Part shown: positions 32,722-51,753 of the stretch, piece by piece | How the letters are laid out: every line of letters starts with the position of its first letter | Numbering within the stretch: the first letter of the stretch is position 1 | Assembly (NCBI GenBank): GCA_009845905.1 | Contig: VXYS01000013.1 | Coordinates: 98,924 to 162,923, forward strand | DNA length: 64,000 bases | Source: Gammaproteobacteria bacterium | GTDB lineage: Bacteria; Pseudomonadota; Gammaproteobacteria; Steroidobacterales; Foliamicaceae | Direction of reading: 5' to 3' | Notes under the pieces: model-generated | Database searches by the model: none | What the model saw: only the letters and a program-made list of their open reading frames with translations | What the model was told of the DNA's origin: nothing | Program-made: the position numbers and the translations under genes

Positions 32722-32847
32722 GTCGCGGAAGTATAGCCGCCATCCCTGATCCGGCGCGTGATTTTTCGATCTGCTAGACTCGCGCCGCGTCGCGTAGGTC
32801 GACCGGCCGGCCGGCGCCACATCGATACCAACAGGCGGAAAGATTCA

Positions 32848-33729: not shown

Positions 33730-33751
33730 ACGCCCCGGCTAACGGCCCTGA

Positions 33752-35730: not shown

Positions 35731-35753
35731 TTTCAAGCGCCTTCAAAAAATAC

Positions 35754-35782
35754 TTGAATGGTAGTATGGTAAATGGCATACT
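35754..35782 (+). promoter_or_regulatory. Candidate sigma70 promoter for the TonB-dependent receptor, overlapping a 6-bp inverted repeat
   Basis: TTGAAT (35754-35759), a 17-nt spacer, then CATACT (35777-35782), in the only AT-rich stretch of the divergent intergenic region. The inverted repeat is AGTATG-N8-CATACT at 35763-35782. Confidence 0.3.
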
Positions 35783-35874
35783 CCCTGATGTCTACATGAG
35801 CGAGTGGCGACTCTTGGTTGTGTAGAGGGAAAACCGAACAATGGACCAGCCGCAGGTCCGAAGGAGAAATCCAC

Positions 35875-38871
35875 ATGAAAAATCAACTGAGATTCGCCCT
35901 GCCAATGCTCGCGCTGCTGGTGGCCAATCCCGCGATCGCTCAGGATGCTGCATCGGATGATGTGGACGGAAATGATGCGATCGTGGAGGAGGTGGTCGTT
36001 ACGGGTTCACGTATTGCCAGAAATCCGGCCGACGTCGCGGCGCCCTTGGTCTCGGTCGGTTCGGACGACGTACTTTATTCCAACACACCGGATCTGGGTC
36101 AATTTTTACAGGAATTGCCCCAGCTTTCCAGCTTCGGTGGGCGTCAGTCCATTTCGGCGGACGAACGCAACGGGTCAACCAGCAGTACAGGATTGAGTCG
36201 GGCCAATCTGCGCGGTCTGGGCACGTCTCGGACTCTGGTTCTGGTGAATGGCAAGCGGCATGTTTCCGGGGCTGCCGGCACCCAGGCAATCGACCTGTCG
36301 ACCATTCCTCCTATCCTGATCCGGTCGGTGGAGGTCATCACCGGCGGCGCATCCGCGGTTTACGGATCTGATGCGGTAACCGGTGTGGTGAACATCATCC
36401 TCGACGATGAACTGGAAGGCATTGTCTTTGACACCAACTACAACCGCCGATTCGAGAATTCCGCCGGCGAAAACTACCGGTTCGCCATTGCGGGCGGTTC
36501 GGAACTGGCGGACGGGCGCGGGCATATCACCGCGTCTGTCCAGTACGACCGGCAAAGCCTCATGTTGGCGCCCGATCAGCCATTCTCGAACAATTATCAG
36601 AGGGTGAACGTCACCGACGCCAATAACGTCAGGGGCGACGGCAATCCCGATCACGTGATATTGCCGAATGTAGCCGAAGACATCATAGGCCCCTTCAGTG
36701 TTTTCAACGTGTTCGGTGAATATGCCGCGGCATTGGGTGATACCGGGCGCTGGAGCTTTACCGAAGACGGCCGCGACATATTCAGATTGCCTGAACCTAT
36801 TGTCGCCGGGCGGTATCCGCGTCCCCAGAACCTTATTCTGGGTGACTTCGCCGAAATCACTCCCGCGCTTGGGCCGCGTGATCCGTACCTGACCATTATT
36901 CCCTCGGCCGAGCGATTCGTCAGTACTGCAAGCGTAAAGTTTGACGTGGGCGCCAGTTTTGAAGCTTATGCCGACACCAAGTACTCCAAGACTTCCGGCC
37001 GCGATGTCGATTTTCCCCGGCAAATCATTTTTGCGCGGATCAATGTTGCGGACAATCCCTACCTTCCGGAATCGGTTCGCGCCCGGTTCCTGGCCGGCGG
37101 GGTAGGGGAGGTTCGAATTCTGGACAACGTACTTGAGCTTGAAACTTCCGGGGAGTGGTATGACCGCCAGTCTTCAACCATCGTTGCCGGTCTTCGCGGC
37201 GACTTCGATGCAGGATTCTCCGCACTGACGCTTGACGCCTATGCGCAATACGGTTCAACCCGTAATGAGATTCGCCGGGCGCCGCAACGAATCACACCCA
37301 ACCTGGGCGCGGCCATCGATGCCGTAATCGATCCGGCCACGGGCAGGCCCGCGTGCCGCAGCCATGTGCCGTCCGCGCAGCCTGCCGGCTATCGCAGTCC
37401 GGCGAGTGTCGATGCCGGCAATTGCGCGCCCCTGAATCCGTTCGGCATTGGCCTCGTATCGCAGGAAGCGCTCGACTTCGTGTTCAAGCCGGCGACCAAC
37501 CTCCAGGAGGTCGACCAGGCCGTCCTGGGTCTTACGTTCACGGGCGACACCAATCGCTTTGCCAATCTTCCCGGCGGGCCGGTCTATTTTGCGGGCGGCG
37601 TCGAGTATCGGGACGAATCGGCCGCCTTTGACTGGGATACGCTCGAGGAACTCGGGGCTTTTGGAGGCCCCGCTTCGGATTCATCGGCCTCGTTCGATGT
37701 ATCCGAGGTTTTCGCCGAGGTGAGTGTGCCGGTGCTGGATACTCTGACGCTCGATGGAGCGGTCCGCTACGCGGACTACAGTCATGCCGGCGGAGCGACG
37801 GCCTGGAAGGTCAGCGGCAATTTCGCGCCCGTAGAGAGATTCGGTATCCGCGGCACGTACTCCGAGGCCGTGAGAGCGCCGAACCTGACGGAGGCCTTCT
37901 CGCCCGCGTCACAGATGAACTTCCTGCCCGACGACTTGTGCGACTTCGAGTTCCTGGCAAACGAAACGCAGACCGTTGCCAACAACTGCGCCGCCCTGGG
38001 TCTGGGCCCCGACTTCGATGCCTTTGACGGCTTGACGATTTTCGGATCGGTCAGCGGGAACGAGAATCTGACGCCCGAGGAGTCGGAAAGCTACACCTTC
38101 GGCGTTGTCTTCAGGCCATTCGAAGGCTGGGAATTCTCCATTGACTACTACTCGATCGAGATTACCGACGCGATCGCTTCCATTGGCGGGCAGGACATCG
38201 TCAATCTTTGTCTGCGCGACGAGACCGGAATCAACAACCAGTTCTGTGACCGTATTGCACGGAACCCGGGACCGGGCGATACGCCGCGCGGCGTTCCAGT
38301 CGGCGGCATTATCGACATCGCTTCCGGCTTCGTGAATGTCGCAGCGCTCGAGACCAGCGGTTTCGATGTCGCGGGTTCGTTTTTCGGGGACGCGAGCGAT
38401 CTGACATTCGGGATGCTCAAGACGGGCACGATGTCCTTCAACATCGTATATACCAATGTGGACGAGCTGTCGGAGTTCCCGTTCCAGAACGATCCGTCCA
38501 GGGAAGACGTCAAGGCCGGTGAGATTGGCCGTCCGAAGCATCAATTCAAGGCAGCTCTCGCATACAGCGGAGGCCTGTTTGATGTTCGGTGGGAATTGCT
38601 CTATATCGGCAATCAGGTAGCGAGGAACATTTCCTTCGACGAGCCCGACATTGTGTCGCCGGATGACACGGGCACGACCCTTTACAACGATGTGTTCGTT
38701 TCGAAGACTCTGGACTGGTTTGGGTCGGAAACCATGGTTTATGCAGGAATCAACAATCTGTTCGATGAGGAACCCCCCATAGCGGCGCTGGAACTCACCG
38801 CGCGGAACGAGGCTGCCAACTTTGATCAATACGGCCGCAACTACGTGCTCGGCGCCAGGGTCCAGTTCTAA
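35875..38871 (+). CDS. TonB-dependent outer-membrane receptor
   Basis: Start at the ATG at 35875 (MKNQLRFALPMLALLVANPAIAQD). It has a TonB-box/plug region EEVVVTGSRIARN and NLRGLGTSRTLVLVNGKR, a long beta-barrel, and a terminal ...YVLGARVQF. Confidence 0.9.
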   Translation: MKNQLRFALPMLALLVANPAIAQDAASDDVDGNDAIVEEVVVTGSRIARNPADVAAPLVSVGSDDVLYSNTPDLGQFLQELPQLSSFGGRQSISADERNGSTSSTGLSRANLRGLGTSRTLVLVNGKRHVSGAAGTQAIDLSTIPPILIRSVEVITGGASAVYGSDAVTGVVNIILDDELEGIVFDTNYNRRFENSAGENYRFAIAGGSELADGRGHITASVQYDRQSLMLAPDQPFSNNYQRVNVTDANNVRGDGNPDHVILPNVAEDIIGPFSVFNVFGEYAAALGDTGRWSFTEDGRDIFRLPEPIVAGRYPRPQNLILGDFAEITPALGPRDPYLTIIPSAERFVSTASVKFDVGASFEAYADTKYSKTSGRDVDFPRQIIFARINVADNPYLPESVRARFLAGGVGEVRILDNVLELETSGEWYDRQSSTIVAGLRGDFDAGFSALTLDAYAQYGSTRNEIRRAPQRITPNLGAAIDAVIDPATGRPACRSHVPSAQPAGYRSPASVDAGNCAPLNPFGIGLVSQEALDFVFKPATNLQEVDQAVLGLTFTGDTNRFANLPGGPVYFAGGVEYRDESAAFDWDTLEELGAFGGPASDSSASFDVSEVFAEVSVPVLDTLTLDGAVRYADYSHAGGATAWKVSGNFAPVERFGIRGTYSEAVRAPNLTEAFSPASQMNFLPDDLCDFEFLANETQTVANNCAALGLGPDFDAFDGLTIFGSVSGNENLTPEESESYTFGVVFRPFEGWEFSIDYYSIEITDAIASIGGQDIVNLCLRDETGINNQFCDRIARNPGPGDTPRGVPVGGIIDIASGFVNVAALETSGFDVAGSFFGDASDLTFGMLKTGTMSFNIVYTNVDELSEFPFQNDPSREDVKAGEIGRPKHQFKAALAYSGGLFDVRWELLYIGNQVARNISFDEPDIVSPDDTGTTLYNDVFVSKTLDWFGSETMVYAGINNLFDEEPPIAALELTARNEAANFDQYGRNYVLGARVQF

Positions 38872-38922
38872 TTCCGGGGTCCCCATGTTCATGGGCGAAC
38901 AGTCTGAACGTCCATGACTAAC

Positions 38923-38959
38923 GCTGTGCGCTCACCGACCCGTTCGGTGAGCGCACAGC
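38923..38959 (+). terminator. Strong stem-loop downstream of the receptor gene (putative terminator or attenuator)
   Basis: Perfect 16-bp stem GCTGTGCGCTCACCGA / TCGGTGAGCGCACAGC with the 5-nt loop CCCGT. No T-tract follows it, so its role as an intrinsic terminator is uncertain. Confidence 0.45.
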
Positions 38960-39040
38960 CATCTACAAGCCAGAGCCAGGCGCGTGGCCGGAGCCTCGCT
39001 GAATCGGTGAGGGGCTCCATTCGGATAAGGTACGTTCACT

Positions 39041-41131
39041 GTGAAGATTTCATCAGGCATTTGCAGTAGTGCATTGCCGATACTGTTCGCGGCAGCGGCG
39101 GGACTGTCTGTTTCAGCCTGCGGCGAAGGCCGCGAATCGACTGCCCCGCTCGATGACCGGGATCCTTCAACGGTGGTCGACGGGAATTGGCCGAATACCG
39201 GACGAAATTTCAGCGAGGACCGGTTTTCCCCGCTGGATCAGATATCACACTCCAATGTCTCCGAATTGGGACTCGCCTGGCGCATGCCGGTCGCTACGGC
39301 AACGAACCTCAAGGGCACTCCGATCGCGGTGAACGGATCCCTTTTCGTCACCGACGGATGGGGTGTCGTGAGCAAGGTTGACGGCGCCTCCGGAGAGCTG
39401 ATCTGGAGATACGCCCCCGAGCCCGATCACAGTGCGGTGCGGGGAGCCTGCTGCACCGTCCTGAACAGGGGTCCCACGAGTTCGGACGGCAAGGTCTTCG
39501 CGGCCGCTTTCGATGGTCAGCTTTTCGCTCTGGACATGGAGAGCGGTGAGGAGATCTGGAAAGTGGACACGATAGACGGCGAAGGGCTCTATTCAAGCTC
39601 GGGGGCGCCGCGTATTGCCGGAGAAAACGTCCTTATCGGGAACGCCGGCGCCGAGTTCGCTGTCCGGGGTTATGTGTCGGCCTACAACAAGGACACGGGC
39701 GAACTGGCCTGGCGCTTTTACACGGTACCCGGGAACCCGGGAGACGGGTTCGAGAATGCCGCCATGGAAATGGCTGCCGGCACCTGGAACGGCGCCTGGT
39801 GGGAAAACGGCGGCGGTGGAACCGTCTGGGACTCCATGTCCTATGACCCGGAGCTGGATCTTGTCTACATCGGTGTGGGGAACGGGTCTCCATGGAATCG
39901 GGAGACCCGCAGCCCGGGTGGGGGCGACAATCTTTTCCTCTCGTCCATCGTTGCGCTCAATGCGACGACCGGGGACTACGTCTGGCACTACCAGACCACG
40001 CCAGGCGATTCCTGGGACTTTACCGCTACCTCGCCCATGGTCCTGACCGATATCGAGATTGATGGCCAGTTGCGCCAGGTCATCATGCAGTCGCCGAAAA
40101 ACGGCTTCTTTTATGTGCTGGATCGCCGTTCCGGCGAACTCCTGTCGGCGGACCCGATTGCCACCGTGAACTGGGCCTCGCATGTTGACATGGAGACCGG
40201 TCGCCCCGTCGAACACCCCAATGCAAGATTCATCGAAGAACCGTTCCTGGGCATCCCGGGGCCGAGTGGCCACCGGAATTGGCACGGCATGTCTTTTCAC
40301 CGGCCTTCCGGGCTGATGTTCATGGCGGTAAACGAAACGGCCTTCCTGTTTACCCAGACCGACGACATCGTTGAAGTGCAGGGCCGTTTCCGGCAGGACC
40401 TGGGATACAGGCCGTGGCAGGATCTGGCTTCGATCCTCGAGGAAAGGGGCGTGACGCTCGAGGGTCAATACCTGCTCGCCTGGGACCCGGTGGCCCGGAA
40501 AGAGGCCTGGCGGGCCAGCCGTAATCCGCCGCGCGGCGGCAGCGTTCTTTCAACCGCCGGAGAACTGGTGTTTCAGTCCGATCGATCCGGTGAGTTTGCG
40601 GCCTACCATGCAAGGACGGGCGAAAGGCTTTGGTCGGCCTCCCTCAACACGGGCGCCGTCGGCGGGCCGATTTCCTATGAGGTGGACGGTCGGCAATACA
40701 TAGCCATTCTTGGGGGCCATGCGCATCCAGGCTACAACATGGCTAGAAACGCGGCCCTGTTCGCTTTCAGCTTGGGCGGCGACCGCCCCTTGCCTGCAAG
40801 AATCGAATGGCCGGTGGACAACTATGAAGCGGTGACCCTTACCGCGGAGCAGTCAGCAATGGTTGGACTTGGCGACAGGCTGTACCATGCGCACTGCCTG
40901 CATTGCCACGGTCCGAATGCCGCAAGTGGCGGCAATGTTTCCGACCTGAGGTACTCGCACATTTCAATCTTTGACATCTGGACGGAAATTGTCCTTGACG
41001 GGACGCTTGAATCCAACGGAATGCCCGCGCATGCCGATGTTCTGACGCAGGAAGAGTCCGACGCAATCAAGTACTACGTCCAGGATCAAGCCAACCTCAG
41101 AAAAGTTGCCCTTTCCGGCGCCGACGACTGA
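39041..41131 (+). CDS. Quinohemoprotein alcohol dehydrogenase (PQQ propeller plus C-terminal cytochrome c), lipoprotein-type leader
   Basis: GTG start with leader ...AAAGLSVSAC (a lipobox-like sequence). PQQ-ADH features include the vicinal-Cys VRGACCTVLNRG and repeated W-motifs. The C-terminal heme site is CLHCHG with the downstream Met region SNGMPAH. Confidence 0.88.
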   Translation: MKISSGICSSALPILFAAAAGLSVSACGEGRESTAPLDDRDPSTVVDGNWPNTGRNFSEDRFSPLDQISHSNVSELGLAWRMPVATATNLKGTPIAVNGSLFVTDGWGVVSKVDGASGELIWRYAPEPDHSAVRGACCTVLNRGPTSSDGKVFAAAFDGQLFALDMESGEEIWKVDTIDGEGLYSSSGAPRIAGENVLIGNAGAEFAVRGYVSAYNKDTGELAWRFYTVPGNPGDGFENAAMEMAAGTWNGAWWENGGGGTVWDSMSYDPELDLVYIGVGNGSPWNRETRSPGGGDNLFLSSIVALNATTGDYVWHYQTTPGDSWDFTATSPMVLTDIEIDGQLRQVIMQSPKNGFFYVLDRRSGELLSADPIATVNWASHVDMETGRPVEHPNARFIEEPFLGIPGPSGHRNWHGMSFHRPSGLMFMAVNETAFLFTQTDDIVEVQGRFRQDLGYRPWQDLASILEERGVTLEGQYLLAWDPVARKEAWRASRNPPRGGSVLSTAGELVFQSDRSGEFAAYHARTGERLWSASLNTGAVGGPISYEVDGRQYIAILGGHAHPGYNMARNAALFAFSLGGDRPLPARIEWPVDNYEAVTLTAEQSAMVGLGDRLYHAHCLHCHGPNAASGGNVSDLRYSHISIFDIWTEIVLDGTLESNGMPAHADVLTQEESDAIKYYVQDQANLRKVALSGADD

Positions 41132-41184
41132 TCTTCAGTTCGGTAATACCCTGAACGGGCCGCATTGGCCGGATGGGGGCGGTC

Positions 41185-42747
41185 TCAATGAAGGCTTTTC
41201 AACGGCCTTGTAAGCGGCAGTACCCGGGCGGGATTGCCCGTCATGATGTCGTTAATTTGAGCTTCCGTCATCCCCTGGTCGCGGAAATAAGGCAACAGCA
41301 CCGTATGCACATATTTCAGTCCGAAGCCCCCGAACCGGGTCAGCTGAAATTTCGTACACATGTCATGCGACACCAGGATCTGTTTTGAGTAGCCCTTTGC
41401 CACGAGCGAAAGAATGGCTTCGGCGCCACGCAGATCATTCATGCTCAACTGCCAGGGGTTTCCGAACACGTCAAACTGAAGAAAGACTCCCCGCTGCAAC
41501 AGACCCTCAAGAAATGTAAGGTCCGCCACCGCCGCGTTCGATATGTGGCCCAGGATGACGCGGGAAAGGTCCGCGCCATCTCTTTCGAGCAGGTCGAGGG
41601 CCAGCGTGAGTTTTGACATATCGTAAAAATCGCTGTGAATCGAAATGGCCGCGCCCGTCCATGAACTGGCCATCGCCGCCGCCCTAAGTACTTTCGATTC
41701 ACCCGTTACGGGCTCTGCGGAAGTGATTTTCTCTATCGGTATTTCGCCGATGATTCCCGCCTTTACCGTCGTGCCATTCACGCCGACGGTGATGTCCTCA
41801 TACATCCGCAGGGCCAGATCACGGACGCTCATGTCCATCAGCGTTACGGGATGCCAGGCGGTTCGGTAATAGCCGGTGCCCATCACAATCCGGACTCCCG
41901 TGCGCTCCGATACCTCTCTCAATTTTTCCGGTTGCCTGTTGAGTCCGATGGACGTGACGTCAACAATCGCGCCTCCCCCAAGCTCACGAAAATCGGACAC
42001 CTCATCCAGTGCGTCCTGCAGGCTGTCCAGAGTGAAGGCATCCCTGTTGGCCCACAGGCGAGCGGCCATCCCGGCGCGGTTGTGCATGGTCAAGGGCTGT
42101 CTCCATGCATTCAATTCCTCGGGAGAATTGGGCGGAGTCCGGCCGAATAGCTGGTTCCAGCGGGCCGGCTCATCGGCAGGCAACCAGAAGTCGATGAACA
42201 GATGCTCATGCATCAGTGTTTCGCCCAGCCGGTCGGGCTCTATGGCGCCCGTGACCGTGAGCACCTTGCCGATGTAATCAGGGCCGGGAGCGTTGTCAAT
42301 CTTGAGTATCAGTTTCCGACGAACTTCCGCGGCGCGGGTCATGAGAGGTTTCTCACGCAGACGGCCGACCTCCTTCTCGTCATATGGAGAAAAAGAGTCG
42401 GGGATGTTTTCCTTGTCGAACTTCCTGAGCATCCAGTTCAACAGTTCCGCCACCTCGGAATCGGAGAGACTGGCAAAGGCGACGCCGGGCACGCGAACCA
42501 GGTATTGCCGCCCGCCTTCCACCTTGAGGAAGCGGGACACCTGGCCCGCCATGTTCGGCGCGCCACCTTCGGTTCCCTCGGCATTCGTCCCGTGGCAACC
42601 TCTGCAACTCATGGTCCAGTTGAGTTCCGCGCCGGACAGGGCCGGTGCATTTTCAGGATCGGGAGGTTCCGAGGCGTTGCCGCCCACGGACAGCAGCAGC
42701 CCCGAAACGCAGACGGCGAGAAAGCGCACAGCCGGGGCCGCCGCCAC
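41185..42747 (-). CDS. Periplasmic monoheme cytochrome c fused to a phosphotriesterase-family (PTE/PHP amidohydrolase) domain
   Basis: Signal-like N-terminus (AAAPAVRFLAVCVSGLLLSVGG) and heme motif CRGCHG with APNMAG. The PTE metal-ligand set follows: LMHEHL, VKAGIIGEI, ISIHS, ILGHIS and VSHDM. The start is uncertain: GTG at 42747 touches the mauA-like stop, GTG at 42729 is an alternative, and the track start at 42822 lies inside the upstream gene. Confidence 0.7.
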   Translation of the reverse strand: MAAAPAVRFLAVCVSGLLLSVGGNASEPPDPENAPALSGAELNWTMSCRGCHGTNAEGTEGGAPNMAGQVSRFLKVEGGRQYLVRVPGVAFASLSDSEVAELLNWMLRKFDKENIPDSFSPYDEKEVGRLREKPLMTRAAEVRRKLILKIDNAPGPDYIGKVLTVTGAIEPDRLGETLMHEHLFIDFWLPADEPARWNQLFGRTPPNSPEELNAWRQPLTMHNRAGMAARLWANRDAFTLDSLQDALDEVSDFRELGGGAIVDVTSIGLNRQPEKLREVSERTGVRIVMGTGYYRTAWHPVTLMDMSVRDLALRMYEDITVGVNGTTVKAGIIGEIPIEKITSAEPVTGESKVLRAAAMASSWTGAAISIHSDFYDMSKLTLALDLLERDGADLSRVILGHISNAAVADLTFLEGLLQRGVFLQFDVFGNPWQLSMNDLRGAEAILSLVAKGYSKQILVSHDMCTKFQLTRFGGFGLKYVHTVLLPYFRDQGMTEAQINDIMTGNPARVLPLTRPLKSLH

Positions 42748-43304
42748 TACTTTTGCTGGACGGCTATGCCGACGACATTCGAGGTCGAGCAGGTAAACGT
42801 CGTTTCCCCGGAGCCCATGCACCAGAGGTAGGCCCGGCTCGACTGCGACCTGATCGGGGGCTTCGCATTGGGATCATGCGGAGAACACAAACATCTCTTG
42901 CACGTGGGTTTCCCGCAACAATCGTTGTAGGAAATGATGTAGTAGACGTCGTCGGCAGGATTGAGGCACGTTCCGATCCAGGAGAGCGGTGACATGACGG
43001 TCCCCGGCGGGCAGGCATTTGCGCTGCCTCCGCAACATGCGCATAGCGGTCCGCCGATGCCGCAGTAACGCCAGTAGTCGCAGCTCGTCTGGCTTCCCTC
43101 TTCCCCGTCACTCACCGGCGGCCTGGGGGCAACCCCTTCATAGCCCCCGGGCTCCTGGTCGGCATGGACCCTGGCCACAGGCAAAAGGGGCAGGGCGGCG
43201 CCGCCCACGAGCAGCGAACCCAGGCCGCCAAGCAGGCTGCGCCGGGAGGTGCGTTGCGCCAGTTGCCGTGTTATTTTTTCCGACAGCTTCTCTACAAACG
43301 ACAT
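42747..43304 (-). CDS. mauA: TTQ-dependent amine dehydrogenase light (small) subunit, MauA/AauA family
   Basis: Long Tat-type leader (...QRTSRRSLLGGLGSLLVGGAALPLLPV). The mature part aligns motif by motif with methylamine dehydrogenase light chains: CDYWRYC, LCACCGG, CPPGT, LSW, CLNP.D, YIISYNDCCG, RCLC, LWCMG and FTCS. Confidence 0.85.
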   Translation of the reverse strand: MSFVEKLSEKITRQLAQRTSRRSLLGGLGSLLVGGAALPLLPVARVHADQEPGGYEGVAPRPPVSDGEEGSQTSCDYWRYCGIGGPLCACCGGSANACPPGTVMSPLSWIGTCLNPADDVYYIISYNDCCGKPTCKRCLCSPHDPNAKPPIRSQSSRAYLWCMGSGETTFTCSTSNVVGIAVQQK

Positions 43305-43341
43305 ATGCCCCTCCCGGGCCGAAAGTGATTGCGGGACCCGG

Positions 43342-43992
43342 TCATTGAGGCCGCACGTTGGCGCTATCGGGCGCCTTGATGCCGAAATCGACCAGTTCCA
43401 GGTGTTCCTGTATGGTCGAGACCTTCATCACTTGCGTTTCGATCAGACTCTCCAGGTGCTCGCGCGAATTTGTCAGCCCCAGTCCGCTGATTCGACCGTC
43501 GTCATCGATGAGTACCGCGAACGGCAGTTGACTGACCCCGAACTCAATACCGAGCGACTGCGACAAGACGTACGGGTAACTGCCGATCCTGTGCCTGTCG
43601 ATAAACTCGACGTGCGCGTCGCGCGATTCGCCATCGCTGGCGAACACAAGGTCAAGCCAGCCACGCTCCCTGGCCGCGATTGACTTGATGGCCGGCAGCA
43701 GGGTCTTGCAGATCGGACACCCGGGAGCGAGGAAAAATATCAGCTGCGCCTTGTCTTTGCTGGCGGCATCGGCGGGTTTGCCGATTTCGATTTTTCCTCC
43801 GTCGATCGTGTCCAGACGCATCGTCGGAGCGACATCGCCGCCGGCCAGCTTCCTGTTCATCGCGAGCGCGCCCACCGGTGCGATTCGCTCGAACAGGACC
43901 CCAACCTGACGCGCAAGGGCAAAGGCAATGACGCCGAGCGCCAATACCAGGATCCAGAGGATCAGATTGGAAACTACGAGAAAACTGGTCAT
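43342..43992 (-). CDS. mauD: MauD-like thiol-disulfide oxidoreductase (membrane-anchored redoxin)
   Basis: Start at the ATG at 43992, giving an ATGA overlap with the mauE-like stop. It has an N-terminal TM helix and a thioredoxin-fold motif FLAPGCPICK. Its position between mauE and mauA matches known clusters. Confidence 0.8.
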   Translation of the reverse strand: MTSFLVVSNLILWILVLALGVIAFALARQVGVLFERIAPVGALAMNRKLAGGDVAPTMRLDTIDGGKIEIGKPADAASKDKAQLIFFLAPGCPICKTLLPAIKSIAARERGWLDLVFASDGESRDAHVEFIDRHRIGSYPYVLSQSLGIEFGVSQLPFAVLIDDDGRISGLGLTNSREHLESLIETQVMKVSTIQEHLELVDFGIKAPDSANVRPQ

Positions 43993-44558
43993 GCTGTTGA
44001 GTTCGGGGTCAGATAACTTCTGTTCGCAAGCAACGTATCGACCAGGACATACAGCATACCGGCGGCCAGTACCATCAACGGCAGATGGAGCCAATCAATG
44101 GTTTGCAGCTCACGCGCGGTGACGGGCAGCACGCCGGCCAGACAAATCAGGATCAGGACGCCATTCCGGCAGAGATGCCAGGCCGAGATCAGTGATCGTT
44201 GCTTCCGAAAGGAGCAACCGCAGTCTATTTCTCGATTTCCTCTTGCAAGAGAGTAAGCCATCAACAACAGGTACGCGAACAGGAGCGCCGCGCCCGCAGC
44301 AAATCCACCCATTCCGAGAATCCGCAATTGCGGGAACAGGAGAGACGTCAAGAGCGCGAGTCCGATAGTCGTCTCAACCGCCACGACCAGGCCCGCGGCG
44401 AGGGCAAGCAGATTCGGACGAACGACGTCATATTTCCCCAGCAGCGAAACAAATCGTTCAAAATCCCTGAACTTGTGGAACCCGCCGGACAGGAAAAATC
44501 CCGCCAGGAAAAGAGCGATAAGCCAATGCGCCAGCGGATCGATCATGGGCCAGCTCAT
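43989..44558 (-). CDS. mauE: MauE-like integral membrane protein (amine dehydrogenase maturation)
   Basis: Start at the ATG at 44558, giving an ATGA overlap with the mauB-like stop. It has about 4-5 TM helices, with GGFHKFRDFERFVSLLGKYDVV and a CGC motif (EIDCGCSF). Confidence 0.75.
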   Translation of the reverse strand: MSWPMIDPLAHWLIALFLAGFFLSGGFHKFRDFERFVSLLGKYDVVRPNLLALAAGLVVAVETTIGLALLTSLLFPQLRILGMGGFAAGAALLFAYLLLMAYSLARGNREIDCGCSFRKQRSLISAWHLCRNGVLILICLAGVLPVTARELQTIDWLHLPLMVLAAGMLYVLVDTLLANRSYLTPNSTA

Positions 44559-45709
44559 TTGTTGGTGTGGATCAGCTGAAACGTCGTCGCGTCTTCCCAC
44601 CAGCCTCCTATCTCCTGGATGAATTCTCCGGTTTTCGCTTCATAAACGCCGAATCCATTTCCGGAAAGCAATACCAGGTGGGGGCTGTCTCCCCCCGTGA
44701 CTGCAAGCGCGGATGCGTCCTTGCGTAACCCGATGCGCCCGACGCGCTTTCGGGCTGCCGGATCGAACGACCAGACTTCGGATGTGCCCCCGATGCGCGC
44801 GCCGTCTTCTTCAACCCTGTGCATCAGCACGTAGAGAGTTCCGGAGCGGTCGACATCAACCGTTTCACGCCTTACGGGCCGCCAGCGGTCCTGCTCTTCT
44901 TCGTCGCTGATCAGGCTCCAGTCCGGAAGAACTACCGGCTTGGCGCCTGACAGATCGACCGGTTGCAACCTGCCGAACTGAGTCGGGAAATAAAAAATCT
45001 GATCGAAGACGCCCGGTGTCATGTACATGGCATCGTTATCGATATCGTTGAACGGATCGGTCAGCCCCTCTTCAATCACGTCGCCGGACGCATTCAAGGT
45101 GAAGTGGGCCAGGGATCCGTCGCCGCACAGCGTGAAGAAACTCTGGTCCGCATACGGATAGATGAAAGTGCAGCCCGGAATCTGGACTTCACCCGCAACA
45201 ATCCTTTGTTCCATGTCGACGACCGTGACGGATGCGGCGGGCGTGAAGTTGTAGAGAAGCAGGAATCGCTCATTGCCGGTCAGGCGCGTCATCGCGGTTC
45301 GGGGGCTCATGAATGCCCGCTTGTTGCCGGGCAGCGGGACCTTGCCGATTGCCTGCAGGTTTGCCTGTTCGTATATCGTCACCAGATCGCTGCGCCGACC
45401 GTAGCCCACGTTTTCGTAGTAGCTCTCGGCAACGTAGAGCTCGGCGCGTTTTTTCGACCAGGCAAGGCCTGCGAACTGCGCCCCCTGAAACTGGCCTTTC
45501 ACCTGATCGGTTTTCGCGGCAACGTCTATGATGATGTAGCCGCCCAGCACCATCGTCGGATAGTTGAAGTCCTGAACGATGACCCAGCTTTCGGGATATT
45601 CCCCGGGGAGCGTGCGCGAATTGGGAATGGTGTCCAGAGGAACCTGCGCCAAGGCGCCGGCCGAAAAAATCGACAGCATCAGCAGGGAGGACAGTACGGC
45701 CAGGAACAC
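44555..45709 (-). CDS. mauB: TTQ amine dehydrogenase heavy (large) subunit, MauB/AauB family beta-propeller
   Basis: 384 aa with a signal peptide (FLAVLSSLLMLSIFSAGALA). It is collinear with methylamine dehydrogenase heavy chains (ELYVAESYY...RRSDLVTIY, FLLLYNFTPAASVTVVD, CGDGSL, LYVLMH) and sits first in a B-E-D-A gene order. Confidence 0.8.
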   Translation of the reverse strand: MFLAVLSSLLMLSIFSAGALAQVPLDTIPNSRTLPGEYPESWVIVQDFNYPTMVLGGYIIIDVAAKTDQVKGQFQGAQFAGLAWSKKRAELYVAESYYENVGYGRRSDLVTIYEQANLQAIGKVPLPGNKRAFMSPRTAMTRLTGNERFLLLYNFTPAASVTVVDMEQRIVAGEVQIPGCTFIYPYADQSFFTLCGDGSLAHFTLNASGDVIEEGLTDPFNDIDNDAMYMTPGVFDQIFYFPTQFGRLQPVDLSGAKPVVLPDWSLISDEEEQDRWRPVRRETVDVDRSGTLYVLMHRVEEDGARIGGTSEVWSFDPAARKRVGRIGLRKDASALAVTGGDSPHLVLLSGNGFGVYEAKTGEFIQEIGGWWEDATTFQLIHTNK

Positions 45710-45772
45710 GGGAACTTGCAGCCTTGGAGGAAAGATATACTAATATACTCGGGCGGGAAGGGGTAGTTCATC

Positions 45773-46267
45773 ATGCACGTGAAAACAGGATACCTGACCT
45801 TACTCGGGGCTCTTCACCTGTTGTTTCCGTTGCAGCCCTCATATGCACAGTCACTGCGCCCGACACTGGATTCCGATGCGGCGCAGACCATCATTGAAGC
45901 GTGCAAGCGGAAAGCCCTGGAAAACGACTGGAAAATGGCGATCGCCATTTACGACGACAGGGCGACTCTCCTGGCTTTCCTGAGGATGGACGGCGTCAAG
46001 ACCGGCAACGTCAGGATCGCGCTTCTCAAGGCGGAGGCAGCGGCAAGCTATGGCCGGCCGACGAAACTGTGGGCCGAGCGCGCGGAGAAGAATCCCGCTT
46101 ACCTGGGGCTGCCCGCCTTTCCCGGATTCGGCGGAGGGGAAGCCATTTTTGCGAGCGATGGGACGTTGCTGGGCGGGGTCGGTGTATCCGGTTCGTCGGA
46201 CAGCAACGACGCCGCCTGTGCGCAGGCAGGTATTCTGGCGGCTGAATTGCAATTCCAGACAAATTGA
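45773..46267 (+). CDS. Secreted GlcG/HbpS-like (DUF336) putative heme-binding protein
   Basis: Signal peptide LLGALHLLFPLQPSYAQS, then a DUF336 core (AIAIYDDRATLLAFLRMDG...ALLKAEAAASYGRPT...GGVGVSGSSDSNDAACAQAG). Confidence 0.7.
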   Translation: MHVKTGYLTLLGALHLLFPLQPSYAQSLRPTLDSDAAQTIIEACKRKALENDWKMAIAIYDDRATLLAFLRMDGVKTGNVRIALLKAEAAASYGRPTKLWAERAEKNPAYLGLPAFPGFGGGEAIFASDGTLLGGVGVSGSSDSNDAACAQAGILAAELQFQTN

Positions 46268-46309
46268 GATAATTGTCGGCTGAATGACGTTATCGACGGA
46301 ACTTAGGGT

Positions 46310-47029
46310 GTGAATCGAACGAATTTAAACATTCTGGACATGAAAGTGGCGCCGCTGAGGGTGAAGGTGGCGCATATGCTCCGTGAGGAGATCACCTCGG
46401 GGCGACTTCCGCTTGGATCTCAGATTTCCGAGCAAAGCATAGCGGAAGACCTGCAGATCAGCCGGACTCCCGTACGGGAAGCGATCATGTCGCTTGCCGT
46501 CGAGGGGCTCGTGGATGTCAGGCCCCAGTCCGGCACCTACGTTTTTGGCCCCGACCCCGATGAAATCGTGTCGATCTGCCAGATGCGTCTCGTGTTGGAA
46601 TCGGCGGCTCTCAAGATTCTGGCGAAATCCGACCACAAGGAAATTTTCGTTCAGACATTGGTCGACAACGTGAGACAGGCCGCCAAGGCGCTCAGCGTCA
46701 ATCTCGAAGAGTGTCATCAACTGGACACCGCTTTTCACCGCGCACTGATCGAGGCGAGCGAGAATCCTTTCCTTATTCAGTCCTATCACGGCATTTCCAA
46801 CAGATTGCATGCTCTAAGGCAACTGTTGCCGTTCACGAAGACCCGGTTGAATGCCGCGCTGAAACAGCATCGTCAATTGATTGCGGCCATCAAGCAAAAC
46901 GACATAAAGGGCGCGCAGTCGATTATTGAAGAGCATATTGCCAACGTCGAGGCCATGCTCCTTGAAAGGCTCGACAAGCCCAGGGGCAGTCACACGGTGA
47001 TTCGCTCGCGCGGTTCCAAGCGCGCTTAG
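46310..47029 (+). CDS. GntR-family transcriptional regulator (FadR/FCD subfamily)
   Basis: N-terminal winged HTH (GSQISEQSIAEDLQISRTPVREAIMSLAVEGLVDVRPQSGTYV) and a C-terminal all-helical FCD-like domain. It has a GTG start. Confidence 0.85.
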   Translation: MNRTNLNILDMKVAPLRVKVAHMLREEITSGRLPLGSQISEQSIAEDLQISRTPVREAIMSLAVEGLVDVRPQSGTYVFGPDPDEIVSICQMRLVLESAALKILAKSDHKEIFVQTLVDNVRQAAKALSVNLEECHQLDTAFHRALIEASENPFLIQSYHGISNRLHALRQLLPFTKTRLNAALKQHRQLIAAIKQNDIKGAQSIIEEHIANVEAMLLERLDKPRGSHTVIRSRGSKRA

Positions 47030-47076
47030 TCTCGCTTTGGCATGAGCCACGCTGCGGCGGCGCCCGGCGCAGGCCG

Positions 47077-48489
47077 CTATCTGGGCGTCGGATGGGCAAC
47101 CCCGCCCTTGATCACCATTTCGATCGAGCAGAGCGCATCGATGTCTTTCGTCGGGTCCGTCGAGGTGGCGATAACGTCTGCGTAGTATCCCTCCTGGATT
47201 CTGCCGATTTGGTCCGCCATGCCCAGATTCTCCGCGGCATTGACCAGAGAGGCCAGCAAGGCCTCCTCGTTGGAAAGACCGGCTTCCACCAGCAGGCCGA
47301 ACTCTCCGCAGTTCTTGCCGTGACCGTCCATGCCGGAATCCGAACCCAGGGCAATCCTTATTCCCGCTTCGTGCGCCTTGCGGGTTGCCGTGAGCATCTG
47401 AGGACCCACGACAAGGGCCTTTTCCTTTTGAGCTGCGGGAAGGGGAGAATCCTCCAGTTCCGCCCAGCGCGAAATGGTATCGCCCGCCAGAAGCGTCGGG
47501 ACCAGAAAGGCGCCACTCTCCCTGAAGCGAAGAATGCTGCTTTCGTCCAGAAAAGTGCCGTGCTCTATGGAATCGGCGCCCGCGTCCAAAGCGGCATTGA
47601 TTCCGTCCAGGCCGTGGGCATGGGCCGCAACCCTTCGCCCCAGGGAATGGGCGGTATCGACTATTGATTCCAGCTCCGCGCTTGTGAACTGTTGACCTAC
47701 GCCGGCGCTGGCTGCGCTGAGAACGCCTCCTGTGGATGTCAACTTGATGGCTTCCGCCGAGTCTCTGATTTGCCGTCGCACGGCCTTGGCGCACTCGTCC
47801 GCACCGTCGCACACGCCGGAAGGAGTAAAAAATTCGAAAAGTCCGTGCCGAAACCCGGTACTCCTGTCAATATGTCCGCCTGTCGGGGTAATGGTCTGCC
47901 CCGACGCCAGGATTCTTGGACCGGCAACGTCACCGCGGCTGATTCCATCACGCAGCGCATATATCGAATCGGGTCCCCGGGCGCCCAGGTCGCGAACCGT
48001 AGTAAACCCGGCCAAAAGAGTCCTCTTGGCGGCCGCCGCGCCAAGAATGGCGCGGTCCGCGTCCGAAAGAACCACAAAGCCCAGGCGCCTGTTACCTACC
48101 GGCAGCGCGGTGAGATGGACATGTCCGTCTATCAGCCCTGGAAGAACGTAACTGTCCTTGAGATCAATCAGTGTCGCGGAGCTCGAATCCTCAAACCCCA
48201 ACTCCCCGGGGGTGGGAAAACCATCCTCCACTCGCGCGACCTTGTCCCCGACGATCACGATCGTCCTGGATTTGGTGGATTCCAGGGCCCCGTCGACGGG
48301 AGTTATCAAGGTGCCCGCATGGATAATGGCGACATTCTCGGCAGGGACGGGATTGCCCACCAGCAGAAACACCAACCCGACTATCAAACACCGTGCCCTC
48401 CGTGCCTGAACGGCCACGGAATTACCGGCCAGAGACGGGGTATGCAGGAGAATTCTGGCTTCCGGCTGACTCAAGATCATTGTTCCCAC
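47077..48489 (-). CDS. Amidohydrolase-superfamily metallohydrolase (imidazolonepropionase/Xaa-Pro-dipeptidase-like), probably exported
   Basis: It has a hydrophobic leader (CLIVGLVFLLVGNPVPAEN), the motif PGLIDGHVHL, a later AHAHG, and IEHGTF. The start is uncertain. Confidence 0.7.
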   Translation of the reverse strand: MGTMILSQPEARILLHTPSLAGNSVAVQARRARCLIVGLVFLLVGNPVPAENVAIIHAGTLITPVDGALESTKSRTIVIVGDKVARVEDGFPTPGELGFEDSSSATLIDLKDSYVLPGLIDGHVHLTALPVGNRRLGFVVLSDADRAILGAAAAKRTLLAGFTTVRDLGARGPDSIYALRDGISRGDVAGPRILASGQTITPTGGHIDRSTGFRHGLFEFFTPSGVCDGADECAKAVRRQIRDSAEAIKLTSTGGVLSAASAGVGQQFTSAELESIVDTAHSLGRRVAAHAHGLDGINAALDAGADSIEHGTFLDESSILRFRESGAFLVPTLLAGDTISRWAELEDSPLPAAQKEKALVVGPQMLTATRKAHEAGIRIALGSDSGMDGHGKNCGEFGLLVEAGLSNEEALLASLVNAAENLGMADQIGRIQEGYYADVIATSTDPTKDIDALCSIEMVIKGGVAHPTPR

Positions 48490-48603
48490 AATTCTGAAAT
48501 ACTATGTTAATTCACCCTTGCTATTGTGAAATGCAGAGCCATGGGACGAGTCCGGTAGCGTGACAGACGTGATGACAATAAAACCCGGTTCGAGGCCTCG
48601 GGC

Positions 48604-49311
48604 GTGAGCGGTCTATCTGCAAGCTTCAAGACTGTCGGCGTCCTGGGCGGCATGGGTCCGGACGCGACCATCGACTTCCTGTCTGAAGTGGTCTCGCTCA
48701 CCAAGGCCGGCTGTGACCAGGACCACATCCCGATGCTGGTCGACAACAACACCAAGGTGCCGAACAGGCAGGCCGCCATCCTGGGAGACGGCGATGATCC
48801 GGGTCCGATCATCGGGCAGATGGGACGGCGGCTGGAGGCCGCCGGCGCCGACTTCCTCGTGATGCCGTGCAACTCCGCGCATGCCTTTCTGGAGCCGCTA
48901 GCGGAACTCACGACCATACCGCTGATATCGATCATTGAAGTGACCGCCGACGCCTGCAATGACTGCTCGAGCGTCGGGATTCTCGCAACGGACGGCTGCC
49001 TCGAGTTCGGAGGTTTCCAGCAAGCCCTGCGCGACCGGGGCATTGCGCCCGTTGTTCCCGACGCACCGGATGTGGCCGGGCTCATGCGACTGATCACCCG
49101 AATCAAGGCAGGCGACAAGGGCCCCGAAGTCCAGCGGTTAATGCGCGTTCTCGCCGGGACGCTGGTCGAGCAGGGGGCCGAGGCAATCATCGCCGGCTGC
49201 ACCGAGATCCCGCTTGTTCTAAGCGAAGGCGAACTGCCCGTTCCGGTCATCAGCTCTACCCGGGCACTGGCCAGGGCGACGGTTGCGGCGGCGGTGGCGG
49301 AGAGTCGATGA
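48604..49311 (+). CDS. Aspartate/glutamate racemase family protein (aspartate racemase-like)
   Basis: Shows GVLGGMGPDATIDF plus the two catalytic-Cys contexts MPCNSAH and AGCTEIP. Confidence 0.8.
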   Translation: MSGLSASFKTVGVLGGMGPDATIDFLSEVVSLTKAGCDQDHIPMLVDNNTKVPNRQAAILGDGDDPGPIIGQMGRRLEAAGADFLVMPCNSAHAFLEPLAELTTIPLISIIEVTADACNDCSSVGILATDGCLEFGGFQQALRDRGIAPVVPDAPDVAGLMRLITRIKAGDKGPEVQRLMRVLAGTLVEQGAEAIIAGCTEIPLVLSEGELPVPVISSTRALARATVAAAVAESR

Positions 49312-49348
49312 GTGCGAGAAGGCGATCGTCTCGCGTGTCCCTTCCGGA

Positions 49349-50542
49349 CTATGCGCGTATTTCGGCCTTCGTTTCGGCAAATTTCTCCACGGCGGTTTCC
49401 AGGTCCTCCAGCGAATGCGCGGCCGAAATCTGTGTGCGAATGCGGGCCTTGCCTTTTGGCACGACCGGGTAGGAAAACCCGATTACGTAGACCCCTTTCT
49501 CGAGCATTCGGTTGGCGAACCGGTTGGCGAGCGCGGCGTCGCCCAGCATGATCGGCACGATGGGGTGCTGTCCCGGCAGGATCTCGAACCCGGCTGCCGC
49601 GATCCGCTCCCTGAAAAACCGGGTGTTGGCCCACAAGCGGTCGCGAAGTTCGTTGTCGGCCACGAGAAGTTCGATGGCTTTGAGCGATGCGGTCACGATC
49701 GACGGCGCCAATGAATTGGAGAACAGGTACGGCCGGGACCGCTGGCGCAGCAGGTCCACGATCTCCTGCCGCGCGGCGGTATAGCCGCCGCTGGCGCCCC
49801 CCAGCGCCTTGCCCAGTGTGCCGGTGACGATGTCGATGCGTTCGACGACCCGGTGATGTTCGGGAGTGCCCCGTCCGTTGTCTCCCATGAATCCCACGCC
49901 ATGCGAGTCGTCCACCATGACCAGCGCGCCATACCTGTCGGCCAGGTCGCATATACCGGGCAGGTCGGCGACCGCGCCGTCCATGGAAAAGACCCCGTCG
50001 GTCGCGATCAGGCGGGTTCGCGCACCGGAAGCGTCCTGAAGCCTGGTCTCAAGCGCCTCCATGTCGTTGTTGCGATAGCGGTGACGCTGCGCCTTGCAGA
50101 GCCGGATGCCGTCGATGATGCTGGCATGGTTCAACTCGTCTGAAATGATGGCGTCGTCCGGCCCCAGAAGCGTTTCGAACAGGCCCGTATTCGCGTCGAA
50201 GCAGGACGTGTAGAGAATGGTGTCGTCCATTCCCAGGAACTTCGACAGGCTGGCCTCCAGCTCCTTGTGGATCGCCTGGGTTCCGCAGATGAACCGTACC
50301 GACGAGAGACCGTATCCCCACCGGTCCAGGCCCTCGTGGGCCGCGCCGATGACTTCCGGATGATCCGCCAGCCCGAGGTAGTTGTTGGCGCACAGGTTGA
50401 TCACCTGCGCACCGCCGGCCACACCGATGTGGGCCCGCTGGGGCGTGGTCAGTACGCGCTCGTCCTTGTGCAGGCCCTGATCCCGGATCGCTCCCAGAGT
50501 CGCGTCGAGTTGACGCGAAACGGCTTCGTACGAATCAGTCAT
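49349..50542 (-). CDS. kbl: Glycine C-acetyltransferase (2-amino-3-ketobutyrate CoA ligase)
   Basis: 397 aa of the alpha-oxoamine synthase family ([35 protein letters not shown]). It overlaps tdh by 8 nt, forming the classic tdh-kbl pair. Confidence 0.9.
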
Positions 50543-51563
50543 TCCAGTGCAGAATGATCTTCCCGCAATCTCCGGACCGCATGATCTCGAAGGCCTTGGC
50601 GAATTCCGAATAATGGAACTGATGGGTGATGACCGGTGTAATGTCGAGCCCGCTCTGCAACATCACGGTCATCTTGTACCAGGTCTCGTACATCTCGCGG
50701 CCGTAGATTCCCTTGATGGTCAGCATGTTGAAAACGACCTTGTTCCAGTCGATCGCCATCTTCGTCTTCGGAATCCCCAGCATGGCCACCTTGCCGCCGT
50801 GGCACATGTTGTCCAGCATCTCCTCGAAGGCGCGGTCATTGCCCGACATTTCCAAGCCTACATCGAAACCCTCCACCATGCCGAGCTTTTTCTGGGCATC
50901 CGCGACGCGCTCGGTTCGCGCGTCCAGCACCAGGGTCGCGCCCATCTTCCTGGCCAGGTCCAATCGGTAGGGATTGACGTCGGTCGCGACCACGTAGCGG
51001 GCGCCGGCGTGTCGGGCGACGGCCACCGCCATTGCGCCGATCGGTCCCGAACCGGTGACCAGCACGTCTTCGCCCAGCACCGGAACGGACAGCGCGGTAT
51101 GCACGGCGTTGCCGAAAGGATCGAAGATCGACGCCACGTCCAGATCGACGTCCGGCGCGTGATGCCAGACGTTGGTCATGGGCAGGACCAGGTATTCGGC
51201 AAATGCGCCGGGGCGGTTCACGCCGATCCCCCGGGTATCCGCGCAGAGGTGCCGGCGCCCGGCCAGGCAGTTCCGGCAGGTGCCGCAGACCACGTGGCCT
51301 TCGCCGCTGACGATTGCTCCCGGCTCAAAATCGCTCACGTTCGAACCGGTTTCGATCACTTCACCGACGAATTCATGACCCACGACCATGGGCACGTTTA
51401 TGGTCGCCTGCGCCCAGGCGTCCCAGTTGAAGATACTCAAATCCGTGCCGCAGACACCGGTCCGGTCGATGCGCACGAGAACGTCGTTGATGCCGAGTAC
51501 CGGTTCCGCAACATCCTGCAACCAGAGCCCCGGTTCGGATCGCGTCTTGACGAGGGCCTTCAT
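50535..51563 (-). CDS. tdh: L-threonine 3-dehydrogenase
   Basis: [52 protein letters not shown] is near-collinear with E. coli Tdh. Confidence 0.92.
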
Positions 51564-51753
51564 GTCGCGAGCGCGTGATTTGGCTTGGAAACCGCTCCAA
51601 CCGCTTTAATCCGCCAACGGACCATGCACTGCCCAGGTTGCTCGCTTCCCGCTCAAGTCTACCATACTAGTATGCTTTCCTGTAAACACCTTGCCTTGCC
51701 GAACCTTATGGGACAGAACACTGGGGCCGCGCGTCGGTAAACTGCCGGCTGGG

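Follow-up and report, generated by a model that had tools for sequence, protein, structure and literature searches.

Gene organization of the locus

The DNA analysed here (the window) is a stretch of 64,000 nucleotides, contig VXYS01000013.1, from a sponge-associated gammaproteobacterium. Its positions 41185-45709 carry, on the minus strand, an operon for a putative amine dehydrogenase with the cofactor tryptophan tryptophylquinone (TTQ). The operon ends in a gene that joins a c-type cytochrome to a hydrolase of the phosphotriesterase (PTE) family. Two aspects of the locus are new: the cytochrome c::PTE fusion, which is rare and recent, and a clade of light chains with Gly in place of an active-site Asp, which is tied to genes for PTE-family proteins and for quinohaemoproteins. 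In the following, L-numbers designate loci of relatives and homologues, and P-numbers individual homologous proteins. The five co-directional open reading frames (ORFs) of the operon, and the two parts of the last one, are:

44555-45709, minus strand: heavy (alpha) subunit of the TTQ dehydrogenase, a beta-propeller with a Sec-type signal peptide (PF06433, E 2e-31)
43989-44558, minus strand: MauE-like membrane thiol oxidase, DsbB-like (PF07291, E 1e-20; CXC motif DCGC)
43342-43992, minus strand: MauD-like periplasmic thioredoxin-fold protein (TIGR02661, E 1e-49; CPIC)
42747-43304, minus strand: light (beta) subunit precursor of the TTQ dehydrogenase, with a Tat leader (PF02975, E 8e-38)
41185-42747, minus strand: cytochrome c::PTE fusion of 520 residues (PF00034 at residues 39-75; PF02126 at residues 169-510, E 3e-61)
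42298-42747, minus strand: cytochrome c part of the fusion, residues 1-150 including the signal peptide (PF00034; CRGCH at residues 48-52)
41185-42282, minus strand: PTE-family (amidohydrolase superfamily) part of the fusion, residues ~156-520 (PF02126, E 3e-61)

Profile matches in Pfam and NCBIfam agree with the five ORFs and the family identities proposed in an earlier note on this DNA, including the description of the last gene as a monohaem cytochrome c joined to a phosphotriesterase-family protein (PF00034 and PF02126). The start/stop overlaps listed there were also found when the sequence was read base by base. The mauE start overlaps the heavy-chain stop in ATGA at 44558-44555, the mauD start overlaps the mauE stop in ATGA at 43992-43989, and in TAGTG at 42749-42745 the light-chain TAG and the GTG of the fusion share the G at 42747. 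The start codon of the fusion is uncertain: GTG 42747 is used in a database protein of 95% identity, and an in-frame GTG further upstream, at 42822, is possible. As for the CXC motif of the MauE-like protein, such a motif has been named as the active site of MauE (preprint 10.64898/2026.03.05.709764).

The claim that the operon region (41.1-46.3 kb) holds neither a cupredoxin-like ORF nor an ORF with two CxxCH motifs can be extended to all 64 kb. Among ORFs of at least 70 amino acids, CxxCH occurs in two, the fusion and a pyrroloquinoline quinone (PQQ) dehydrogenase, with one motif each, and the window therefore contains no dihaem MauG candidate. In a comparison of its ORFs with four cupredoxins (amicyanin, azurin, pseudoazurin and plastocyanin), none showed a resemblance, the best E value being 0.74. 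The window also lacks mauF. A scan of 40.9-46.4 kb for promoters and terminators returned no promoter-like sites, and terminator-like sites were found at the level of shuffled sequence.

Measured against L001, synonymous divergence (dS) is uneven along the operon: the fusion has a dS of 0.139 and the light chain one of 0.007, and the heavy chain, mauE and mauD lie between them at 0.045-0.056. Such unevenness hints at recombination inside the operon.

Relationship to aromatic amine dehydrogenase

Two groups of TTQ enzymes served as reference, methylamine dehydrogenase (MADH) and the aromatic amine dehydrogenase (AADH) of Alcaligenes faecalis. Among solved structures, AADH is the better match for both subunits: the heavy chain scores 114 bits against AADH (2h3x/2agl) and 89 bits against MADH, and the mature light chain 121 and 93 bits, respectively. 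All four mau-like proteins score under the MADH equivalog cut-offs, e.g., the heavy chain on TIGR02658 (118 bits, cut-off 454), the light chain on TIGR02659 (148 bits, cut-off 196.85) and MauD on TIGR02661 (168 bits, cut-off 188.6). These scores accord with the earlier reading of the enzyme as a TTQ-type amine dehydrogenase of unassigned substrate. Moreover, the light chain has 14 Cys in the AADH pattern, whereas MADH has 12. By these sequence comparisons the operon is of the AADH type (aauB-E-D-A-cytochrome c), nearer to Alcaligenes AADH than to MADH.

The A. faecalis aau locus (L176), which encodes the light chain of the crystallised AADH, reads porin-like orf1-aauB-E-D-A-166-aa monohaem cytochrome c-AraC-orf-hemE. 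Its cytochrome has a single CAGCH motif, and neither mauG nor a cupredoxin gene lies within 10 kb. The locus agrees with the cluster that Chistoserdov reportedly described in 2001 in Microbiology, made up of orf-1, aauBEDA, orf-2 (a cytochrome c), orf-3, orf-4 and hemE. In A. faecalis, a TTQ locus devoid of MauG and amicyanin was already documented in 2001. The earlier note had assumed that aau clusters carry a cupredoxin gene after the light chain as well as mauG, and this assumption has to be dropped.

The arrangement in A. faecalis is widespread. A light-chain scan with one genome per species gave at least 599 confirmed loci, of which the best 80 were read in detail; these are concentrated in marine gammaproteobacteria and sphingomonads. 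The heavy chain is present in 78 of the 80. A cytochrome c, taken as a CxxCH ORF starting no more than 900 bp downstream of the light chain, follows the light chain directly in 74, and in 73 of these it is homologous to the haem domain of the window. Cupredoxins and CCP/MauG-type proteins (within 10 kb) and PTE genes were found in none of the 80 loci. The sole dihaem ORF of MauG size among them, in L083, was rejected as a candidate, being a PF00034/PF13442 cytochrome and not of the CCP/MauG type. A locus with neither mauG nor a cupredoxin gene is the normal state of the AADH-type clade. The gene in the slot of the electron acceptor is the clade's usual acceptor with a hydrolase on its C-terminus, and the electron exit is hence not the non-canonical one that had been proposed. 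What stands of the proposal of a different gene in this slot is the fused hydrolase; the cytochrome itself is the ordinary one.

Apart from the gene order (heavy chain, MauE, MauD, light chain, monohaem cytochrome c) and the absence of mauF, mauG and cupredoxin genes at the locus, the window shares with the aau cluster a light chain with 14 Cys, both TTQ Trp and the catalytic Asp, and a haem domain homologous to orf-2. Differences exist as well. Light-chain identity is only ~45%, Asp84-beta of AADH is replaced by Gly, and the second TTQ Trp stands in the context YLWC, compared to VNWC in AADH. The cytochrome of the window is fused to a PTE hydrolase. The neighbours differ too: where aau has the porin-like orf-1 and an NAD aldehyde dehydrogenase, the window has genes for a TonB-dependent receptor and a quinohaemoprotein of the PQQ dehydrogenase family. 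In view of the altered active-site residue, the biochemical properties of the aau enzyme, with aromatic primary amines for substrates and azurin as acceptor in vitro, should not be presumed for the window.

The likeness to the mau clusters of Paracoccus and Methylorubrum (mauFBEDACJGMN) lies in the two-subunit TTQ enzyme family, the MauE/MauD helpers and the Tat-type leader of the light chain. In contrast to these clusters, the subunits of the window score under both MADH equivalog cut-offs and have the higher light-chain Cys count noted above, mauF, mauC (amicyanin), mauJ and mauG are absent, and the acceptor is a c-type cytochrome instead of a cupredoxin. The existence of a very large AADH-type clade that usually has neither mauG nor amicyanin at the locus corrects an MADH-centred view of TTQ enzymes. 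Throughout this clade, TTQ would have to be completed in the absence of a linked MauG, possibly by a non-canonical maturation route as the earlier note suggested for the window, and the compact operons offer convenient material for studying this.

In several marine gammaproteobacteria (L049-L051, L062, L063, L087 and L090), a complete operon of heavy chain, MauE, MauD, light chain and cytochrome is directly preceded by another heavy-light pair that has no mauE, mauD or cytochrome gene of its own. This suggests paralogous TTQ enzymes with one common helper set.

The light chain and the Gly-for-Asp clade

The light chain begins with the twin-arginine leader TSRRSLLG. Both TTQ tryptophans, W109 in LSWIGTC (codon 42978-42980) and W161 in YLWCMG (codon 42822-42824), align with those of the MADH and AADH structures (3c75_L and 2agl_D) and are invariant in alignment A1 of 14 light-chain sequences. 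The leader and the two Trp had been noted from the DNA, and the structural alignment bears out the two Trp. The catalytic base D128 in YNDCCG, corresponding to MADH beta-Asp76 and AADH Asp128-beta, is likewise invariant in A1.

The second active-site Asp is not kept. At the position of MADH beta-Asp32 and AADH Asp84-beta, the window has Gly84 (43053-43055, GIGGPLC). Among the 108 of the top 120 light-chain matches that fit the motif, this position is Gly in 23, His in 9, Ala in 4 and Ser in 2, as against Asp in all 98 of the 98 AADH-near matches that fit it. The Gly/Ala/Ser/His light chains form a monophyletic clade that includes the window. In the Gly-type clade, the context of the second TTQ Trp has also changed, YLWC replacing TNWC/VNWC. 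Mutagenesis of MADH is said to have found this Asp to matter for TTQ biogenesis and substrate affinity. The Gly-type clade is a natural test of the role of an active-site residue that is thought important in MADH.

The cytochrome domain

The haem motif of the fusion is CRGCH (residues 48-52, 42592-42606). Clusters of this type usually have two paralogous monohaem cytochromes after the light chain, which can be told apart by their motifs: type 1 has a GxMPxQ loop, and type 2 reads NWxMxC[QR]GCH ... GRxYLxRVPG ... LNW. The window domain is of type 2, the kind to which A. faecalis orf-2 also belongs. It matches orf-2 at 34% identity (E 8e-22) and the stand-alone cytochromes of L171 and L177-L179 with E values of 1e-40 to 1e-46. 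Judged by sequence, the haem domain is the orthologue of A. faecalis orf-2, i.e., of the type 2 cytochrome of AADH-type clusters.

The only candidate distal Met lies in the APNMAG motif of the window. In its column (P-x-M), Met is the residue in 62% of 84 type 2 sequences, but in A. faecalis orf-2 it is Phe; none of the other columns with Met or His is conserved. Across these 84 non-redundant type 2 sequences (from L005-L090, L171-L179 and the window), there is neither an invariant Met nor an invariant second His, and haem ligation in the family may be unusual. Since a type 2 cytochrome follows the light chain in nearly every MauG-less AADH-type cluster and no sixth haem ligand is invariant, this cytochrome could conceivably play two parts, as electron acceptor and as the missing oxidant by which TTQ is completed. 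In the window it would additionally be tethered to an amine-supplying hydrolase, making a periplasmic complex with three functions. Such a triple role is regarded as highly improbable.

Anatomy, age and rarity of the fusion

The fused protein consists of a signal peptide and the cytochrome (residues 1-150), a short linker and a mature PTE domain. Both halves have close stand-alone counterparts. P0366 is a cytochrome of 85% identity ending in LILKMQ and a stop codon, and P0002 is a PTE-family protein of 88% identity with a signal peptide of its own. At the junction, LILK is followed directly by IDNAPGPDYIGKV, which corresponds to the mature N-terminus of P0002, DTGNTPGSDFTGKV. The ends of P0366 and P0002 match the junction so well that the fusion can be taken to have arisen when the stop codon of the cytochrome, the spacer and the hydrolase's signal peptide were lost in frame.

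The fused ORF is intact in four other, independent assemblies from sponge metagenomes, at 95% identity, and its dN/dS is 0.15 (0.15-0.63 over the ORFs of the operon). It is a real fusion under selection. An origin as a pseudogene or assembly artefact was considered and rejected, given an ORF intact in five assemblies and the low dN/dS. Elsewhere, the fusion was searched for with phmmer in 1.84 billion representative sequences; among the best 150 of 5,497 matches, none spans both domains. The fusion is young, rare and restricted to one lineage. It constitutes a natural Rosetta-stone link between the cytochrome of the clade and an exported esterase/amidase-like enzyme.

Some other loci deserve mention. 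In the unfused loci L177 (4252-4797) and L171 (1742-2281), a conserved exported protein of ~180 amino acids without a family match is encoded between the type 2 cytochrome and the PTE; it has been lost in the fusion of the window. In L005 (7357-10909 of a 4.77 Mb contig, ~83% identity), the heavy- and light-chain genes are adjacent, mauE and mauD are cleanly missing, and the PTE frame has no start codon ahead of the HxH motif. The state of L005 is due either to decay or to a long-read indel error.

The PTE-family domain

The hydrolase domain matches PF02126 with 208 bits (cut-off 22.4), and its AlphaFold model has a pLDDT above 90. The ligands of the binuclear metal centre are complete (H180, H182, E335, H371, H401 and D462) and invariant or nearly so in A3, the alignment of PTE-domain sequences. 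The nearest solved relatives by sequence are Rsp3690 (3k2g, 186 bits), PTER (9efa, 157 bits) and Pmi1525 (128 bits); the lactonase branch scores ~111 bits or less. The window domain shares with these three the TIM-barrel with its binuclear metal centre (HxH, Glu, His, His and Asp ligands) and the oxyanion Tyr in GTGYY, at 31-35% identity and target-normalised TM-scores of 0.86-0.88. Unlike them, it is exported to the periplasm, as predicted from its leader, and fused behind a cytochrome c; the stand-alone PTE relatives all have export signals. Rsp3690 is a non-specific carboxylesterase (PMC5341072), PTER an amidase acting on N-acetyltaurine and N-acetyl-beta-alanine (PMC11374699) and Pmi1525 a methylphosphonate esterase. 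The domain therefore looks catalytically competent and esterase/amidase-like.

N-acetyltaurine itself was tried as a candidate substrate. Pointers in its direction were the sponge host of the symbiont, the PTER of a sponge as second-best structural match and a nearby gene for a cysteate racemase. The assignment was rejected, as the taurine/sulfonate-binding Arg209 and Arg238 of PTER and its general-acid His305 are Phe, Asn and Cys in the window domain.

Gene neighbourhoods

The genes that flank the operon in the window are the following:

39041-41131, plus strand: PQQ alcohol/aldehyde dehydrogenase, a type II quinohaemoprotein ending in a cytochrome c domain; gene convergent with the operon (TIGR03075, 522 bits, cut-off 480; 1kv9, 595 bits)
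35818-38871, plus strand: TonB-dependent outer-membrane receptor (plug and barrel domains in syntenic relatives)
45773-46267, plus strand: periplasmic HbpS/GlcG-like protein, divergent from the heavy-chain gene (PF03928, E 2e-29)
46310-47029, plus strand: GntR/FCD regulator, a candidate regulator of the locus (PF00392 and PF07729; syntenic in L001-L005)
47077-48489, minus strand: exported Amidohydro_1 metallo-enzyme, amidase/carboxypeptidase-like (PF01979, E 3e-45; syntenic in L001-L005)

Several of these families recur near Gly-type operons. In L177, heavy chain, MauE, MauD, light chain, two cytochromes, a 181-aa protein, a PTE, a quinohaemoprotein alcohol dehydrogenase (ADH) and an HbpS protein follow one another, the HbpS/GlcG-like family there adjoining the PQQ dehydrogenase. 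L006 has a receptor, a PTE, heavy chain, MauD, light chain and a cytochrome, with a PQQ dehydrogenase nearby. A PQQ dehydrogenase comes after the cytochromes in L179, and L178 has a molybdo-aldehyde oxidoreductase in that place. Counted by lineage, a PTE lies beside the TTQ operon in three of the six Gly-clade lineages, in three different arrangements, and a PQQ dehydrogenase in four of the six, compared to none of the 80 Asp-type loci in either case. In L006, L007 and L009, too, there is a TonB-dependent receptor, which comes immediately before the heavy chain; that of the window is probably the substrate importer. As for the Amidohydro_1 enzyme, its nearest solved relatives are an Xaa-Pro dipeptidase (2qs8), amide hydrolases of the ochratoxin type and the carboxypeptidase Cc2672.

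The association has its limits. When 80 metagenome loci with PTE homologues of only 33-41% identity were surveyed, none had TTQ genes, and the association is therefore confined to the close PTE subfamily.

A further amide hydrolase paired with a Gly-type light chain occurs in Sphingosinicella microcystinivorans (L008 2650-5073; L007 4864-5073), where a gene resembling the large subunit of dimethylformamidase (DMFA2_C) and a TonB-dependent receptor gene lie upstream of the TTQ operon. In the complete genome of this species, the dimethylformamidase-like gene is interrupted by an IS element.

Proposed pathway and alternatives

Together with the PTE and quinohaemoprotein genes that recur nearby, the fusion points to an uncharacterised periplasmic route from a conjugated amine through an aldehyde to an acid, with electrons passing to c-type cytochromes. 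The substrate would be taken up through the TonB-dependent receptor, and the PTE domain, probably together with the Amidohydro_1 enzyme, would release an amine and/or an alcohol from an ester or amide conjugate by hydrolysis. The heavy and light chains would form a periplasmic alpha2beta2 enzyme, the 14-Cys light chain being oxidatively folded by MauE and MauD. This enzyme would convert the primary amine into an aldehyde and ammonium and pass the electrons singly to the monohaem cytochrome encoded right after the light chain; in the lineage of the window, one Sec-exported polypeptide would act as both electron acceptor and hydrolase. The type II quinohaemoprotein PQQ dehydrogenase would then oxidise the aldehyde or alcohol, and all oxidations would feed the c-type cytochrome pool. 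A similar logic is seen in the polyvinyl-alcohol pva operon of Sphingopyxis, which combines a periplasmic hydrolase with a quinohaemoprotein dehydrogenase of the PQQ kind and a c-type cytochrome of its own. The hydrolase of the pva operon belongs to a different family, and the operon is not known to have a TTQ enzyme or a gene fusion. On balance, a periplasmic module of hydrolase, amine dehydrogenase and aldehyde/alcohol dehydrogenase, built on an AADH-type operon and feeding c-type cytochromes, is considered the probable function of the locus.

Several observations weigh against this pathway. Stand-alone PTE homologues among the closest (~50% identity) also adjoin PQQ dehydrogenases at loci where TTQ genes are not seen, in L171 (cytochrome, 179-aa protein, PTE, SSF, PQQ ADH) and in L173 (three tannases, two PTEs, cytochrome c::PQQ ADH), so that the hydrolase may serve the alcohol dehydrogenase instead of the amine dehydrogenase. 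Amidase chemistry is not assured, as PTER His305, Arg209 and Arg238 are not kept, and the TTQ light chain has Gly in place of the active-site Asp. The fusion is young, occurs in one narrow lineage and possibly has no mechanistic meaning. In the relative L005, it is broken, by a frameshift or otherwise, with the cytochrome in one frame and the PTE in another, and neither mauE nor mauD is found there. The AlphaFold model is uninformative on domain packing and on the distal haem ligand: the pLDDT of the cytochrome domain is below 50, with only sequences of the window lineage supplied for it. What the sequences show are the gene identities, the conserved catalytic residues, the orthology of the haem domain, the anatomy and youth of the fusion, and the recurring PTE/PQQ surroundings; the substrate and its class, the order of the steps with the hydrolase acting ahead of the dehydrogenase, and any kinetic gain from tethering are inferred.

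Some of these points could also be accommodated by a fusion without functional consequence. The cytochrome would then be an ordinary TTQ acceptor and the PTE an independent esterase whose alcohol product goes to the PQQ dehydrogenase, with no tie to amine oxidation. The TTQ-free loci L171 and L173, the non-specific carboxylesterase as nearest characterised homologue and the youth and narrow distribution of the fusion would all be expected if this were so. The repeated placing of a PTE beside the TTQ operon in three Gly-clade lineages, in as many arrangements, and its absence from the Asp-type loci speak against it; moreover, the PTE of L171 is still preceded by a type 2 cytochrome, the kind that follows TTQ light chains. 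A fusion of this neutral sort is accordingly held to be unlikely, with a real chance of being correct. The PTE could also act downstream as a lactonase or esterase, if the TTQ and PQQ enzymes turned an amino alcohol into a hydroxy-aldehyde or lactol and then into a lactone, to be opened by the PTE. PTE-like lactonases are well known, and PQQ dehydrogenases make lactones from lactols. The fold matches of the domain include the lactonases Lmo2620, GkaP and VmoLac, and the L177 module contains a soluble PQQ dehydrogenase of the GSDH type. By sequence, the domain is nevertheless closer to Rsp3690, PTER and Pmi1525, all of which outscore the lactonase branch, and a lactonase role is deemed improbable.

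Decay of the locus into a non-functional state would agree with the lack of mauG, the Gly at the MADH Asp32 position and the broken frames and missing helper genes of L005. It is hardly reconcilable with five ORFs that are intact in the window and in the four other assemblies, with dN/dS values of 0.15-0.63, and with the retention of the TTQ Trp, Asp128, all 14 Cys, the CXC and CxxC motifs and the PTE metal ligands. Moreover, Gly, Ala, Ser or His at this position marks an entire monophyletic clade whose operons are intact, and loci lacking MauG are the rule in the larger clade, including that of the biochemically active A. faecalis enzyme. The probability of decay is therefore put at very low. 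The periplasmic amine-oxidising module remains the favoured explanation.

Other features of the region

Beyond the amidohydrolase lies an Asp/Glu-type racemase gene (48604-49311, plus strand), which matches the NCBIfam equivalog of the cysteate racemase CuyB with 252.8 bits (cut-off 190). In L001-L005, synteny between this gene and the amidohydrolase, GntR and TTQ genes is kept, and its family hints at sulfonated amino-acid metabolism in the sponge symbiont. On the other side, a conserved protein of 483 amino acids without a Pfam or NCBIfam match (34285-35736, minus strand) is followed by a UGSC-family protein (33752-34351, minus strand). These two genes adjoin the TonB-dependent receptor in the window and in L001, L002 and L005.

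The heavy-chain and HbpS-like genes diverge from an intergenic region of 63 bp (45710-45772), in which there is an AT-rich direct repeat, GAGTATAT-TAGTATAT. The repeat is identical in L001 and L004, sequences that are too close for its conservation to mean much. It is a possible operator for the GntR/FCD regulator.

Finally, the base composition changes across the region. From ~32000 to 52000, the G+C content is 57-62%, compared to 64-68% in most of the flanks, and in relatives the syntenic block is bordered on one side by genes for a phage-type integrase and a PIN-domain protein. The drop in G+C together with the integrase and PIN-domain genes suggests horizontal acquisition of the entire catabolic block as an island.

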